Shown in pieces: positions 5,432 through 10,932 of a DNA stretch of 31,365 bases. The stretch is from positions 1-31,365 of the forward strand of contig JBCCRG010000001.1 of assembly GCA_039208155.1 (NCBI GenBank). Reading direction: 5' to 3'. This DNA is from Bacteroidota bacterium. GTDB lineage: Bacteria; Bacteroidota; Rhodothermia; Rhodothermales; Rubricoccaceae. Position 1 is the first letter of the stretch; the number at the start of each line of letters is the position of its first letter. The notes under the pieces are model-generated. The model was not told the DNA's origin and made no database searches. It worked only from the letters and a program-made list of their open reading frames with translations. The position numbers and the translations under genes were made by a program.

Positions 5432-5559
5432 GTGCGGCCCCGCGCCCCCATGCTCCGAGCGTACATACTTGGTCATGCCATGCCACAACCGGCGTGGAAG
5501 GGTTCGACTCCCTACGCCTGCCTTGGCAGGCCGCTCGGCGGACTTGCGCGGTGCCGTAC
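5432..5559 (+). ncRNA. Y-RNA-like scaffold element Y1 (T-arm insert)
   Basis: CCGCGC 5440-5445 pairs with GCGCGG 5546-5551. CCGAGCG 5455-5461 pairs with CGCTCGG 5532-5538. TACATAC 5462-5468, GACTT 5541-5545 and a T-arm AGGG-TTCGACT-CCCT at 5499-5513. Confidence 0.6.
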
Positions 5560-5595
5560 CGCTTCTCTGGAGACGCCCGTCTCGCCGGAAGCAAC

Positions 5596-5668
5596 GGTCT
5601 AGTAGCTCAACGGCTAGAGCACCCGGTTGTCTGCCGGACGGTTGCGGGTTCGAATCCCGCCTGGACCG
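5596..5668 (+). tRNA. tRNA-Asp(GTC)
   Basis: Acceptor GGTCTAG/CTGGACC, D-arm GCTC/GAGC, loop TT-GTC-TG, T-loop TTCGAAT, G73. CCA not encoded. Confidence 0.85.
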
Positions 5669-5670
5669 CT

Positions 5671-5792
5671 CGTTCGCGCCCCCACGTAGCATGCATACAC
5701 ACTAGCTCAATTGGTTAGAGCGCACGCCTGATAAGCGTGAGGTTGTGGGTTCGATTCCCACGTACCCTCAGCGTGCCCGACTTGCGCGGACG
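5671..5792 (+). ncRNA. Scaffold element Y2 carrying a tRNA-Ile(GAT) D/anticodon/T core without an acceptor stem
   Basis: CGTTCGCGC 5671-5679 pairs with GCGCGGACG 5784-5792; GACTT at 5779-5783. Core 5703-5761 is TA-GCTC-AATTGGTTA-GAGC-G-CACGC-CTGATAA-GCGTG-AGGTT-GTGGG-TTCGATT-CCCAC. The flanks do not form a 7-bp acceptor stem. Confidence 0.7.
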
Positions 5793-5805
5793 TTCCTTGC
5801 AGCCC

Positions 5806-5970
5806 CAGCGCGCCCCAACGGTTCGAGCGTACATACGTCCTTCCAAAGGGGGATTGCAGGTTCAAGTCCTGCCGGGCCCTCACATGGGCCCGTAGCATAA
5901 TTGGTAATGCACCAAGTGTGTGGCCTCACGGCTCGTCCGTGGAGCCGCCGCTCCAACGACTTGCGCGCTG
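5806..5970 (+). ncRNA. Scaffold element Y3: circularly permuted tRNA-like RNA (YrlA-like)
   Basis: CAGCGCGC/GCGCGCTG terminal stem and TACATAC 5830-5836. Order is anticodon-like hairpin, T-arm GCAGG-TTCAAGT-CCTGC (5856-5872), closed acceptor CGGGCCC-TCACAT-GGGCCCG (5873-5892), TA, D-arm GCAT-AATTGGTA-ATGC. Confidence 0.75.
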
Positions 5971-6026
5971 ATGACTGCTTCGTGCTATAAACTTTGCAAC
6001 TCAGATAACTCTAGAGTGCAAGGTAA

Positions 6027-6098
6027 ATCCCTGAAGGCAAATGGCTAGCTGCCACGCTCACATCGTGGAGATAGTAGGTTCGATTCCTACCGGGGATT
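6027..6098 (+). tRNA. tRNA-Val(CAC), non-canonical (A8, U73)
   Basis: Acceptor ATCCCTG/CGGGGAT, anticodon arm CCACG-CTCACAT-CGTGG, T-arm GTAGG-TTCGATT-CCTAC. Confidence 0.7.
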
Positions 6099-6109
6099 CG
6101 ACACAGAAT

Positions 6110-6181
6110 GTCCCTGTAGGCGAATGGCAAGCCGCCACGCTCTCAACGTGGAGATTGCGAGTTCGAACCTCGCCAGGGATA
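6110..6181 (+). tRNA. tRNA-Glu(CTC)
   Basis: Acceptor GTCCCTG/CAGGGAT, anticodon arm CCACG-CTCTCAA-CGTGG, T-arm GCGAG-TTCGAAC-CTCGC. Confidence 0.88.
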
Positions 6182-7925: not shown

Positions 7926-8014
7926 GGAGGGGAGCCGGATGACGGTTCGCCGGAGCGGTCTGCTACACCGTCTGCCGCCAGGCAGCGTGGGTTCGACTCC
8001 CACTCCCTCCGCCA
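7926..8014 (+). tRNA. tRNA-Ser(GCT)
   Basis: GGAGGGG/TCCCTCC, G73, encoded CCA; GCGGT-CTGCTAC-ACCGT; variable arm CTGCC-GCCA-GGCAG; A8. Confidence 0.88.
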
Positions 8015-8131
8015 CCCGACTTGCCGTCCCTCACCACCCTAACCACTCCGAGGATGCTCCACGCGCGCTCCGCGCCGCCCGACGACGCCTTCTGGTGACG
8101 TCTGACTCCTACCACTTTGTCTACTCCGACC

Positions 8132-8956
8132 ATGCCCAACATCGAACTCCTGGAGCGCCACTTCGCGCGCATCGGGGCGGCCTTCCGCGCCGACGCGCCC
8201 GAGCGCCGTCCGTGGTTCCGCCGCGCCGCCGTGCCGTGGTTCTCCCTCGACGTGGACGAGCGCGCTCCCGGCGAGCCCTTCGTCCTCCGCGCCGATCCCG
8301 ATCACCTCGACCGCCTCGACCTCCAGGTCGTGAACGCCGATGTGGCCCAACGGCACCTGCTGCTACACGTGGCCATCCGTCACCACAACCACCAAATCGA
8401 AAAGCACAAGTACCTCTGCGGTCACGACGAGCGGCACTGGTTCGTGGCGGAGACGCCGCGCACCAACGTGACCACGATCCGCGAGGCGATGGAGGCACTC
8501 CGGCCTCCCGAGGTCGCGCGGGCGGTACATCGCCAGGCCATCAAGCCGAAGCGTCGCTATCGCCGCCGCAACCGCGCCTTTGTCCGCCAGGGCGAGTGGT
8601 TCTTCCTCCCGCGTCCTAGGCTTCGTCTCGAAGACGCGGTGATCCATCGTCACGAGCCGCTTCGCCGCAGCGGGGGCAAGCCGCACCTCGTCGAGGAGAT
8701 CGTCCGCACGGGCGGGCAGCCCGTCTACTGGAACGCCCGCTTCCCGGACGGCCTCACCGAGGCACAGTACCGCCGTCGTCTCCTGATGACGCCTGCGCTA
8801 CGCAAGCTGCGTTGGCAGGTGATGCGTCGCAACCCGCGCGTCTTCGCCCGCGGCACGGTGCGCCACCCCGACCATGCCACGCTGCGCCTCCGCGCCTGGC
8901 ACGAGGTCGCCATGGCCGTCGAAGGCCAGACCGGCACCGTCGCATTTCTCGACTAG
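8132..8956 (+). CDS. Hypothetical His/Arg/Trp-rich protein, first CDS after the tRNA array
   Basis: 274-aa ORF with GC3-rich codon use and motif-like segments LCGHDERHWF, RQGEWFF, GGKPH and GTVRHPDH. No family recognised. Confidence 0.8.
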   Translation: MPNIELLERHFARIGAAFRADAPERRPWFRRAAVPWFSLDVDERAPGEPFVLRADPDHLDRLDLQVVNADVAQRHLLLHVAIRHHNHQIEKHKYLCGHDERHWFVAETPRTNVTTIREAMEALRPPEVARAVHRQAIKPKRRYRRRNRAFVRQGEWFFLPRPRLRLEDAVIHRHEPLRRSGGKPHLVEEIVRTGGQPVYWNARFPDGLTEAQYRRRLLMTPALRKLRWQVMRRNPRVFARGTVRHPDHATLRLRAWHEVAMAVEGQTGTVAFLD

Positions 8957-8989
8957 CGTTCTCACCAGAGGGCGCCCTCATGCCTAGAG

Positions 8990-9054
8990 CTGTTGCCAGT
9001 CGCGTGATCCGTGTTGGCTTTAAACCAATACGCAACACGCAATACGCAACACGT
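8990..9054. repeat. Heptamer-repeat imperfect hairpin (copy E2)
   Basis: ACGCAAC-ACGCAAT-ACGCAAC at 9030-9050, central TTGGCTTTA, degenerate TGTTG left arm. Confidence 0.6.
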
Positions 9055-9122
9055 CAGGCACTTTCGCCACGCACGCCGCTGTCCTCACAGATAGGCTGCG
9101 ATGCTGCAAGCCACTCAGATCC

Positions 9123-10634
9123 ATGACCGTCCTGACTTCTCCGATGGGCTCGGCCACGATGACGGGCACGGAGCGTGACCTGCGTCTGGAGCTGCTCAAC
9201 GCCCTCCTGACCACGCCGCATCGCCAGCTCGGCCTCGTCGCCGACCGCCACGCCTACCTCCTCGACCGCGACCCGGTCTTCTACGGCCACCTCGCCGTGT
9301 GGTACCACCGCGAGGGTCAGGTCCGCGACCACAAGGAGGTGTTCACCGCGATGCTGCTCAAGAGCGGCCGCGCCGACCACCGCGAGGCGGGCTTCATGCT
9401 GCTCCAGGACTTGCCGCCGTACCAGGTGGCGCGCGTCGTGGACTTCATGAAGCGCCACCGTGGCAAGGTGCCACGCTCGGCCCGCACGGCCGTCGTGCGC
9501 TACCTCCGTCACCGTGAGGCCTCGAACGCCCGCTTCGACCGCGCGGCCCTGCGCCAGCGTAAGGCGATGAAGAAGCTCTACGCGAGCCTCCACATCCGCC
9601 CGTCGGAGCGCGCCGACCGCATCCTGTTCAAGAACGACCCGCCTGCCGACTCCGTCGCCTTACAGGTGAAGGCGCTGGCGAACGCTGCGGACGCTCACGA
9701 GCAGGCGCGGATGGTGGCCGAGTACCGTATCCCATACCTCGTCGCCGTCGGGGCGCTCCAGGCGCTCACGCCCGAGGTGCTCCGCGCGCTCGTCGCGCAG
9801 ATGTCGCCGCAGGAGGTGATCAACCACCTGAAGGGGCTGAAGGCGCGCGGCGCGTTCGACGACGACGCGGTCCAGGCGCTCGTCGAGCAGAAGCTCGCCG
9901 ACGCCAAGACCGACGGGCGCGTGTCGGCCTACAAGGCGAAGGTCGCGGCGGAGGCGGCGGGCGTCTCGCGCGAGACGGCTGAGGCCCTGGCCGACGTCAC
10001 CGATGCGCAGGTCGCGGCCCTTGGCTCGATCCGTTGTCCGACGGCGCTGCTCGTCGACACGTCGGCGTCCATGACGCAGGCGATCGAGGTCGGCAAGCGG
10101 CTCGCGGCGCTCATCTCGCGCGTGACCGAGGCGGCGCTCCACGTCGTCGCATTCGACACCGTACCGGTCGATGTCGTGCCACGTCAGGGCTTCCTCCGCC
10201 GCAAGCCTGTGGAGACGCCGTCGCTGGACGACTGGGAGCGGGCCTTCGCGGACCTCCGCGCGGGCGGCTCCACGTCGATCGGCGTCGGGCTCGAACTGCT
10301 CCGTCGTCGCCGTGCGCGCGTCGAGCAGGTCGTGATCGTCACCGACGAAGGCGAGAACACCGCACCGTACTTCGTGCCGACGCTGCAGGCCTACGGGCAG
10401 GAGCTCGGCGTGACGCCGGAGGTCGTGATCGTCCGCGTCGGGCGCGCCTCGGACTACCTCGAGCGCCAGCTCAAGGCGGCCCAGGTGCCCGTCGAGACGG
10501 TGACGTTCCGCGGCGACTACTACGCGCTGCCGAACCTCGTGCCGATCCTCGCGCGCCCGTCGCGCCTGGACCTCCTGCTGGAGATCCTCGCGCTCCCGCT
10601 CCCGCAGCGGGACGACCTCGCGCGGGCGGCCTAG
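9123..10634 (+). CDS. Divergent TROVE/Ro60-like protein with a C-terminal vWA domain
   Basis: C-terminal vWA MIDAS motifs [10 protein letters not shown] (DxSxS), GGSTSIG and VIVTDEGEN are clear. The helical N-terminus ([12 protein letters not shown]...RD) resembles TROVE by eye. The position before Y-like RNAs and rtcB matches rsr operons. Confidence 0.7.
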
Positions 10635-10744
10635 TCGCACTCCCTGTCACGCCTGGACGGCGGTCGAACTGTCCCCCCTCGGAGACGAGGGGGACAGCTT
10701 TTCGACCCTTCATGGGGAGAAAAGCAGGGGGTGACGAGGGCGAC
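10634..10744 (+). ncRNA. Long bulged hairpin RNA, candidate second (YrlB-like) Y RNA
   Basis: Nested stems GTCGC/GCGAC, GTCAC/GTGAC, CCTG/CAGG, GGTCGAA/TTCGACC and CTGTC6TCG-GAGA-CGAG5ACAG (GNRA loop, one bulged C). Confidence 0.45.
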
Positions 10745-10777
10745 CTCATAGTCACATACCAACAAACTCCAACACGA

Positions 10778-10932
10778 CGCCGCGCCCCGACCGGGGACGC
10801 TTACATACCTAGAGGAACCTGCAGGTCGGCGGTTCAACTCCGCCCGCGTGCGCTCAGGCGCGCGCGTAGCTCAGTCCGGTAGAGCAGCAGGCACGTATCA
10901 CCGCGCTCCACACTTGCGCGGCGGCGTTTTTT
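10778..10932 (+). ncRNA. Scaffold element Y5: YrlA-type circularly permuted tRNA mimic
   Basis: CCTGC 10818-22, AGGTC, T-arm GGCGG-TTCAACT-CCGCC, closed acceptor CGCGTGCGC-TCAG-GCGCGCGCG, TA, D-arm GCTC-AGTCCGGTA-GAGC, A, GCAGG 10887-91. Terminal stem CGCCGCGC/GCGCGGCG followed by T6. Lies between the TROVE-like gene and rtcB. Confidence 0.85.

Follow-up and report, generated by a model that had tools for sequence, protein, structure and literature searches.

Introduction

What are five elements that share one terminal structure, carry variable inserts and lie in and beside a dense array of transfer RNA (tRNA) genes? The question is raised by a stretch of 31,365 nucleotides, here called the window, from a bacterium of the Rubricoccaceae (Bacteroidota, Rhodothermia; GenBank assembly GCA_039208155.1, contig JBCCRG010000001.1, positions 1 to 31,365, forward strand). 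The assembly comprises 3.5 Mb in 489 contigs, has a GC content of 68% and is 65% complete; the window is its contig C1. An original prediction, made from the letters of the window, had proposed a paralogous family of modular adaptor RNAs docking on a TROVE-like protein, the 503-aa product of a gene at 9123-10634. We conclude, with a probability of roughly three in four, that the five elements are small non-coding RNA genes of the Y-RNA type and partners of a divergent clade of Ro60, in which a common handle would dock on the protein and variable heads would serve a role in translational stress.

In Y RNAs the two ends pair into a bulged helix, and it is by this helix that Ro60 is bound. The other half of the molecule recruits or mimics, as where it tethers PNPase in Deinococcus and Salmonella, and the tRNA-like half of YrlA is handled by tRNA enzymes. 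Ro60 and its RNAs have been studied mainly in animals, where Ro60 is an autoantigen of lupus and Sjogren syndrome, and in three bacteria. Below, 'handle' denotes the constant terminal structure of each element and 'head' the insert that it carries.

Results and Discussion

Five copies of one terminal structure

The motif ACTTGCGCG is present five times in the window, at 5542, 5780, 5959, 6347 and 10912, always on the + strand and preceded by G in copies 1 to 4 and by C in copy 5; none of 100 shuffled sequences reached five matches (mean 0.66). These are the sites first predicted, whose start positions had included the preceding base. A 5' strand of the CGCGCCC type, beginning at 5441, 5675, 5809, 6214 and 10781, lies 110-159 nt upstream of each. 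CGCGC had been described as followed by CCC throughout, which is true of four copies; in copy 4 it is followed by CCA. The outer pairs vary from copy to copy with complementarity kept, and the pairings proposed for the outer and second stems are present. In four copies a UACAUAC-type motif ends at a fixed distance of 28 nt, counted from the first C of CGCGC (TACATAC at 5462, 5830 and 10802, TACACAC at 6235). The predicted positions of this motif stand for copies 1, 3, 4 and 5, whereas in copy 2 the motif in register is AUACACAC at 5695-5702 and not the TGCATAC at 5692.

A conserved handle across related loci

Eighty loci around homologues of the 503-aa protein, the best 80 of at least 590 and mostly cyanobacterial, were fetched and combined with the window (81 loci). 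The descriptor used to search them combined a 5-bp stem with CC after it, the UACAUAC-like motif, and ACUU leading into the complementary stem. Since the 5-bp stem, CC and ACUU are imposed by the descriptor, only the columns that it does not impose, together with two independent models described below, count as tests. Handle matches were found in 77 of the 81 loci, 314 on the strand of the protein gene and 6 on the opposite strand, and they lie mostly within 3 kb upstream of the gene. A locus holds between one and nine copies, with a median of four, so that the five modules of the window, for which the original prediction knew of no described parallel, are ordinary for the family. The consensus handle reads

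5'-[4 variable bp]-CGCGC-CCYAAC-[N5-AGC]-UUACAUAC-[head]-[GCU-N5]-RACUU-GCGCG-[4 variable bp]-3'

and is built, from the ends inward, of a terminal stem of 9-12 bp ending in CGCGC/GCGCG, an asymmetric loop of 5'-CCYAAC against 3'-RACUU, a second stem of 7 bp (stem 2) and the conserved UUACAUAC. CC at handle positions 6-7 was required by the search; the A at position 10, which was not, is found in 288 of 294 cases. Among the un-imposed columns, the extension of the outer stem is paired in 99, 91, 84 and 82% of cases, and stem 2 in 97 down to 79%, with CG, GC, AU, UA and GU all seen.

The bias of 314 matches to 6 bears on the suggestion that the elements are repeats acting at the level of DNA, either recombination sites or the ends of small mobile elements with variable cargo. 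CGCGC/GCGCG inverted repeats around variable inserts would suit such an origin, as would the occurrence of the protein family on two cyanobacterial plasmids and in a 595-kb phage. Repeats of this kind do not account for the strand bias, however, nor for the tolerance of G-U far above A-C in the handle stems, which indicates selection on the + strand RNA; the asymmetric, strand-specific loops and the tRNA-type tertiary motifs likewise speak for RNA. We therefore hold a DNA-level explanation to be very improbable.

Two classes of the family, defined by their heads, were analysed as alignments. In the minimal class (33 members of 65-90 nt, aligned with MAFFT) double changes occur in 13 of the 16 pairs, values as high as those observed were reached in none of 500 shuffles, and sliding the partners lowers pairing from 89% to 29-52%. 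For the permuted class (29 members), in which the head is a circularly permuted tRNA, RNAalifold recovered unaided the outer stem, stem 2, the T-arm, a 7-bp closed acceptor-like stem and the D-stem, with compensatory changes in 24 of 31 pairs.

Models built from relatives recover the window RNAs

Two models were derived from sequences of other phyla: R1 from the minimal class alone, without window sequence, and R2 from the permuted class, with the window and its close relatives (loci L001-L003) excluded; the E-values of both home-made models are rough. R2 found all five window copies at full length, and R1 found copies 1, 2 and 5, gave copy 4 an E-value of 0.08 and missed copy 3:

5434..5557, + strand: copy 1 (R1 46 bits, E 3e-9; R2 41.3 bits; fold z-score -3.5)
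5671..5792, + strand: copy 2 (R1 43.4 bits; R2 42.3 bits; Rfam tRNA 54 bits)
5805..5971, + strand: copy 3 (R2 83.7 bits, E 2.5e-17; Rfam YrlA 36.2 bits; fold z-score -4.9)
6210..6359, + strand: copy 4 (R2 30.5 bits, E 1.7e-5; R1 15.6 bits, E 0.08)
10775..10932, + strand: copy 5 (R2 83.6 bits, E 2.6e-17; R1 27.9 bits; Rfam YrlA 36.1 bits)

The other R2 matches were partial and spanned neighbouring tRNAs, taking the T-arm from the first and the D-arm from the second, a type of false positive also described by Chen et al. 2014 (PMC4201824). Throughout the assembly R1 matched this locus only. Five further pairs of CGCGCCC and ACTTGCGCG exist genome-wide; all lack the UACAUAC motif, and we rejected them as family members on that account, as they look like chance in a genome of 68% GC. 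Of the 15 R1 matches in five cyanobacterial genomes of 7-8.6 Mb, 12 precede the one Ro-like gene of the genome by no more than about 3 kb, on its strand, and three are located elsewhere. Neither the RNA nor the protein was found in 150 other genomes sampled from the phylum of the window (149 of them high quality), which fits horizontal acquisition.

Models made from relatives therefore recover the window copies, and covariation supports the stems: the five RNAs are members of a widespread RNA family, and the proposed plan of a constant terminal stem with variable heads is borne out. It has to be asked whether they could nonetheless be functionless, as decaying tRNA pseudogenes or the rearranged debris of a horizontally acquired array. 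Array genes do decay, given that 3 of 26 in Anabaena are pseudogenes (PMC8421152), and the window contains odd tRNA-like pieces at 7223-7280 and a tRNA-Asn of 95 nt. Yet the handle is nearly identical in nucleotide sequence between this 68% GC genome and AT-rich cyanobacteria, and every stem has undergone compensatory changes. Furthermore, orthologues of copies 1-4 are found in the same order in the related metagenome-assembled contigs L001 and L002, and those of copy 5 in L001, L002 and L003, with compensatory changes in its acceptor-like and anticodon-like stems relative to L002 and L003; all five copies have thus been kept in L001 and L002. Functionless tRNA remnants are a highly improbable explanation.

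Heads resembling tRNAs and ribosomal RNA

The inserts had been predicted to be tRNA-derived and to differ completely. Four of the five heads are indeed tRNA-like, copy 4 having no recognisable tRNA part, and copies 3 and 5 share one kind of insert, a permuted tRNA. In copy 1 the outer stem, a CGCGC-CCCCAU bulge and stem 2 (CUCCGAGCG/CGCUCGG) are followed by UACAUAC, and the head comprises a hairpin, a T-arm (GGGUUCGACUCCC) and a hairpin, without a D-arm. Copy 2, which starts 2 nt after tRNA-Asp, bears a body resembling tRNA-Ile(GAU), whose D, anticodon and T arms follow the usual order. Its ends run into the handle without a 7-bp acceptor stem or CCA, so that it lacks the complete cloverleaf and aminoacylatable 3' end of a tRNA; the Rfam tRNA match covers model positions 6-65 only, and ARAGORN makes no call. 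Over 56 nt, orthologues of copy 2 share 84% identity with the tRNA in the spacer of a cyanobacterial ribosomal RNA (rRNA) operon.

The head of copy 3 is a circularly permuted tRNA-like structure (anticodon/variable-like hairpin, T-arm, closed acceptor-like stem, D-arm), with an additional hairpin at about 5920-5945. That of copy 5 is permuted in the same manner, consisting of a T-arm, a 9-bp closed acceptor-like stem and a D-arm. Its closing stem is followed by U6 at 10927-10932, directly before the start of RtcB; the stem and U6 look like a terminator, at which transcripts from the Ro-like gene would end with an oligo-U tail. Copy 4 has a non-tRNA core of two hairpins (GCGCU..AGCGC, UGCAAG, GUCGG..CAAUAG..CCGAC), common to at least 10 RNAs of cyanobacterial and Chthonomonadaceae loci (among them L014:5787, L035:3047, L047:3393, L004:5565, L068:463 and L061:5695), with compensatory changes in the second hairpin. 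Over the whole family, the following classes represent the heads found in the window, together with the minimal class:

Ordinary-order tRNA body (D, anticodon, T arms) with the handle in place of the acceptor stem: 104 RNAs in 67 loci (insert cluster 0); window copy 2
Circularly permuted tRNA in YrlA order, (anticodon/variable) - T - closed acceptor - D: 78 RNAs in 51 loci; window copies 3 and 5
Hairpin - T-arm - hairpin: 20 RNAs in 20 loci, assigned by architecture; window copy 1
Two-hairpin non-tRNA core around UGCAAG: at least 10 further RNAs; window copy 4
Minimal hairpin (65-90 nt), usually 100-180 nt upstream of the gene: about 50 RNAs; absent from the window

Two further classes, present in relatives and absent from the window, resemble 23S rRNA, for which cyanobacterial 23S served as the reference. 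Heads of about 200 nt carry the GTPase-associated centre (helices 43/44). One of them (L072:937-992) matches positions 1093-1148 of the Rfam large-subunit model with 42.7 bits (E 5e-12), and by BLAST 8 of the 9 members match real (cyanobacterial) 23S at this site; the same head also bears a sarcin-ricin-loop-like AGUACGAGAGGAA. The members are L072:841-1042, L078:295, L050:553, L014:2234, L045:8294, L061:10536, L076:1936, L016:2800 and L027:8596. Heads of about 179 nt (L069:4232-4410, L011:3897-4076, L007:3588-3775 and 13 more) contain the helix-69 sequence GUAACUAUAACGGUCCUAAGGUAGCG, where 15 of 16 members match cyanobacterial 23S by BLAST; an Rfam scan of one member (L069:4225-4420) gave no large-subunit match. 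The 23S of the assembly itself was rejected as a reference, because the only AGTACGAGAGGAC in the assembly sits in coding-like DNA on contig C193 and not in rRNA.

This diversity of heads bears on whether the elements act merely in cis, as processing signals of a tRNA operon, stabilisers, terminators or autoregulatory leaders of the Ro-like mRNA. Their position invites the idea: they are tightly packed with tRNAs, as the spacing of copy 2 illustrates, copy 5 ends in a stem and U6, and most relatives have a minimal copy about 100-180 nt upstream of the start codon of the protein. The heads, however, are elaborate and particular to each class, as in the permuted tRNAs with their closed acceptor stems of 7 bp; they are conserved with covariation across phyla and would be needless in simple signals. 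In most loci, several copies occur in the absence of a tRNA array. A cis role of the copy nearest the gene is, moreover, compatible with a role in trans, and we consider a purely cis-acting function quite unlikely.

A predicted Ro60-type ring protein

The protein encoded beside the RNAs is as follows:

9123..10634, + strand: Ro60-like ring protein, 503 aa, with a predicted helical-repeat domain and a vWA domain with complete metal-ion-dependent adhesion site (MIDAS)

Pfam TROVE (PF05731) gave no match to the protein even at E-values up to 10, only a weak vWA signal of about 21 bits; NCBIfam TROVE and a sequence search of PDB likewise gave nothing beyond weak vWA signals, and no TROVE match was obtained anywhere in the assembly. 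As these sequence searches were empty, the protein is recognised as Ro60 through fold comparison only. An AlphaFold2 model, computed with 33 homologues, reached a predicted local distance difference test score (pLDDT) of 86 and a predicted template modelling score (pTM) of 0.81. Its top 13 matches in PDB are all Ro60, Rsr or TROVE structures, aligned over the full length with template modelling (TM) scores of 0.56-0.69, E-values from 5e-13 to 1e-8 and 13-18% identity (9NFA, TM 0.69; 1YVP, 0.66; 2NVO, 0.56; 9L5Y, 0.56-0.63). The next matches are isolated vWA domains with TM below 0.3, and the best Swiss-Prot entries of the AlphaFold Database are RO60 of D. radiodurans, Xenopus and C. elegans. 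The earlier suggestion of a TROVE-like protein thus gains the backing of a predicted fold, and the 503-aa product is predicted to be a very divergent Ro60-type ring protein, distant in sequence from TROVE.

The residues of the MIDAS (DxSxS...T...D), D312, S314, S316, T384 and D408, are invariant in the 33 homologues. The protein family numbers more than 1,900 homologues, typically of 477 aa and about 60% identical, from cyanobacteria, Bacteroidota/Rhodothermia, Chthonomonadaceae, Gammaproteobacteria, Acidobacteriota and Myxococcota; those that bear a name in their source are listed as hypothetical or vWA proteins. Members reside on two cyanobacterial plasmids (NZ_CP083583.1, Kovacikia, and NZ_CP051207.1, Dolichospermum; 59-64% identity) and in a 595-kb uncultured phage (LR756511.1; 44% identity). 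The Anabaena gene all4315 (PMC8421152) could also belong to the family.

The Ro-like gene is the only constant neighbour

Copies 1-4 of the window lie 2.8-3.7 kb upstream and copy 5 0.15 kb downstream of the Ro-like gene, on the same (+) strand. Within the 80 related loci, the other genes found nearby in the window have homologues only sporadically: the RNA ligase RtcB is encoded within 6 kb in 7 of 80, a 279-aa open reading frame (ORF) in 5, a DUF6847 protein in 18 and the RNA 2'-phosphotransferase Tpt1 in 11. A tRNA array of at least five genes accompanies 15 of the 80, and most loci have several RNA copies without an array. The Ro-like gene is the only constant neighbour of the RNAs.

These counts help to decide whether the handle of otherwise genuine RNAs might be bound by another factor, such as RtcB, a ribonuclease or the 279-aa protein, with the Ro-like protein a mere neighbour. 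The sequence of the handle is unlike the known Ro60-binding motifs (PMC4201824), its conserved UUACAUAC has no counterpart in known Y RNAs, and docking on the Ro-like protein is proposed by analogy, all of which would leave room for a different partner. None of the candidates, however, approaches the constancy of the Ro-like gene, directly upstream of which 12 of the 15 whole-genome RNA matches are located. Another binding factor is accordingly unlikely.

Comparison with known Ro60 systems

Like the YrlA and YrlB RNAs of Salmonella Typhimurium and Mycobacterium smegmatis, which accompany Rsr (PMC4201824), the present RNAs adjoin a Ro60-type gene on the same strand, with more than one RNA per locus, and combine a terminal stem with an effector head. 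Copies 3 and 5, and no other window copies, have the permuted order of YrlA, with T-arm, closed acceptor-like stem and D-arm; in full, the shared order is variable region, T-arm, closed acceptor-like stem and D-arm. RtcB is a neighbour in the rsr-yrlBA-rtcBA operon of Salmonella as it is here. The differences are substantial: the handle is CGCGCCCYAAC...UUACAUAC...RACUUGCGCG where YrlA and YrlB have GNCGAAN0-1G; there are 1-9 RNAs per locus against 1-2; the protein is not seen by Pfam TROVE; and heads of types unreported for YrlA occur, made of a tRNA body in ordinary order, of a non-tRNA module or, in relatives, of pieces of 23S. Scores against the Rfam YrlA model (RF02553, gathering cut-off 69 bits) amount to 27-42 bits. 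In the window they are 36.2 bits (5822-5940), 36.1 bits (10820-10889) and 27.1 bits, the last for a tRNA T-arm joined with the D-arm of copy 2, and relatives reach 35-42 bits. The comparison with YrlA that had been suggested for the window RNAs therefore reveals a resemblance of copies 3 and 5, at 36 bits, that stays below the cut-off. At gathering thresholds and at E-values up to 10, no Rfam family covers the handle in the window or in four cyanobacterial loci, the only matches being to YrlA and tRNA below threshold.

Human Y1 ends in ...CACUUGACUAGUC. The present RNAs resemble the Y RNAs of animals and Deinococcus (1YVP; D. radiodurans Yrn1 with Rsr and PNPase) in their long stem of paired ends, a pyrimidine bulge in the 5' strand and ...ACUUG... 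in the 3' strand, and the predicted protein fold resembles Xenopus Ro60 (1YVP, TM 0.66). They differ in that the bulge is of at least 3 nt (CCY) rather than one C, GGUCCGA is lacking, and protein identity is 13-18%; we know of no PNPase link for the present family. Ro60-like proteins of phages, including the homologue from Thermus phage phiLo (PDB 9L5Y; PMC12135203), are comparable as divergent rings that keep the fold at low identity; phiLo Ro60 belongs to a separate clade, and a shared RNA handle is not known.

Loci with several Ro60-associated RNAs are partly known already, since Salmonella and M. smegmatis each have two Y RNAs and D. radiodurans has four small RNAs upstream of rsr (PMC4201824). 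Chen et al. 2014 searched only genomes with annotated TROVE genes, obtained few YrlA matches in cyanobacteria and expected variants (PMC4201824). The paper on L-type tRNA arrays (PMC8421152) contains none of the terms Ro60, Y RNA, YrlA, vWA or tRNA-like, and a description of the present family was found neither in Rfam 15 nor in the searchable literature on Y RNAs, Ro60 and tRNA arrays.

Two features expected of Y RNAs are present: the RNAs are encoded near, and on the strand of, a Ro60-type gene, and their ends pair into a long stem with a conserved bulged helix, in which both the terminal stem and stem 2 covary. Several observations weigh against their assignment as Ro60 partners acting in translational stress. 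The known Ro60-binding sequences are GGUCCGA in animals and GNCGAAN0-1G in YrlA and YrlB (PMC4201824), and the 5' strand of the handle, CGCGCCC(Y)(A)AC in the copies and the family consensus, matches neither. Both Rfam YrlA and Pfam TROVE remain below threshold. Given the counts for RtcB and for arrays of at least five genes, the repair and array context is not constant, and these are not fixed companions of the RNA family. With regard to expression, the window sequence was found only in metagenomic DNA runs; in RNA-seq assemblies of Acaryochloris the homologous region appears as multi-kb contigs without discrete ends, for which a polycistronic precursor or DNA carry-over are possible explanations. 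By architecture, then, this is a Ro60/Y-RNA system, formally outside Rfam YrlA and Pfam TROVE and without the known Ro-binding motif.

Layout of the locus

The RNAs and the Ro-like gene belong to a one-strand block between thiC, with its thiamine pyrophosphate (TPP) riboswitch, and a gene for a TonB-type receptor. In order, the block contains an AT-rich stretch, 16 tRNA genes, the 279-aa ORF, the 503-aa 'vWA' protein, RtcB, a DUF6847/DIP1984 protein and a methyltransferase-Tpt1 fusion. Besides the RNAs and the Ro-like gene, the features are:

4547-4648, - strand: ordinary TPP riboswitch upstream of thiC (Rfam 67.3 bits)
5320..5370, + strand: AT-rich stretch upstream of copy 1, with the perfect palindrome TGTGCAAAT/TAATGCACA at 5332-5349 and a TAAATTTG element just before copy 1
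5596..8014, + strand: array of 16 tRNA genes interleaved with copies 2-4 (ARAGORN, Rfam tRNA)
8117..8956, + strand: ORF of 279 aa between the array and the Ro-like gene
10931..12409, + strand: RtcB RNA ligase (Pfam RtcB, E 2e-84; NCBIfam RtcB family)
13925..15016, + strand: methyltransferase-like domain fused to RNA 2'-phosphotransferase Tpt1/KptA (Pfam PTS_2-RNA, E 7e-48, and N6-adenineMlase, E 3e-19; NCBIfam)

The AT-rich stretch, the only one of the region, is a candidate promoter and operator of the entire array; between 5100 and 11200 no promoter of the sigma-70 type was detected, as expected for Bacteroidota. The array, with 16 tRNA genes in 2.4 kb on a single strand (ARAGORN), is an extra set and not the main tRNA supply of the cell, since 11 of the 16 anticodons recur elsewhere in the assembly, incomplete as it is (genome-wide ARAGORN). 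Long, dense, one-stranded and supernumerary, it is an L-type tRNA gene array (PMC8421152), sharing with arrays of that kind horizontal spread and the neighbourhood of rtcB; most loci of the present RNA family, in contrast, lack a large array. Two of its stretches are unusual. The tRNA-Asn(GUU) at 7407-7501 is 95 nt long, with some 20 extra nt around the T-arm, and a weak tRNA-like piece at 7215-7300, between tRNA-Trp and tRNA-Lys (Rfam tRNA 18 bits, 7223-7280), may be a disrupted or insert-bearing tRNA.

The 279-aa ORF has no Pfam or NCBIfam match and may or may not be part of the system. The true start of RtcB is probably the ATG near 10977. The fusion of an N6-adenine-methyltransferase-like domain with Tpt1/KptA is an unusual combination.

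A proposed mechanism

The handle most likely docks on the Ro60-like ring protein, as the bulged terminal helix of Y RNAs docks on Ro60. The heads imitate RNAs of translation, with a T-arm module in copy 1, a tRNA-Ile body in copy 2 and permuted tRNAs in copies 3 and 5, copy 4 bearing a conserved non-tRNA module, and may give each particle its specificity. The RNAs are probably co-transcribed with the supernumerary tRNA array and then cut from the precursor: the tight packing with tRNA genes, the single AT-rich region upstream and the stem and U6 after copy 5 together suggest one processed precursor. The resulting ribonucleoproteins may act with RtcB and Tpt1 in a response to RNA damage or translational stress, a context to which the supernumerary array, the presence of RtcB and Tpt1, and co-induction in Anabaena all point; in that organism the tRNA array and rtcB are induced by translation inhibitors and the array tRNAs are cleaved (PMC8421152). 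They might do so by bringing enzymes that recognise tRNA or rRNA to the ring, or by presenting substrate mimics.

Anticodon arms, the sarcin-ricin loop, the GTPase-associated centre and helix 69 are sites hit by ribonuclease toxins and inhibitors of translation. As between recruitment and a bait or decoy role of the heads, the mimics of rRNA centres in relatives make the bait idea attractive. The family might then constitute a panel of baits, in which one ring and a common handle present look-alikes of just these target sites, so that damage or occupation would be sensed or absorbed at the ring and coupled to repair by RtcB and Tpt1 and to the back-up tRNA array; the system would be a sentinel or decoy arm of the translational-stress response and not part of ordinary RNA quality control. 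We offer this extension tentatively and regard it as doubtful.

Significance for the Ro60/Y-RNA system

The family extends the Ro60/Y-RNA quality-control system, and the present window contributes an example from Bacteroidota in which the locus includes an array of tRNA genes as well as RtcB and Tpt1. A large clade, spanning cyanobacteria, Bacteroidota and at least four other phyla as well as plasmids and a huge phage, escapes standard tools at the level of both protein and RNA, and many 'tRNA pseudogenes' and 'spacers' of accessory tRNA arrays may be partners of Ro-like proteins. These natural swaps of heads on a fixed handle offer a way into the question of how the function of a Ro60 particle depends on the variable half of its Y RNA. 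With one ring protein paired with up to nine RNAs, the idea of modular adaptors becomes directly testable, and several of the carriers are culturable.

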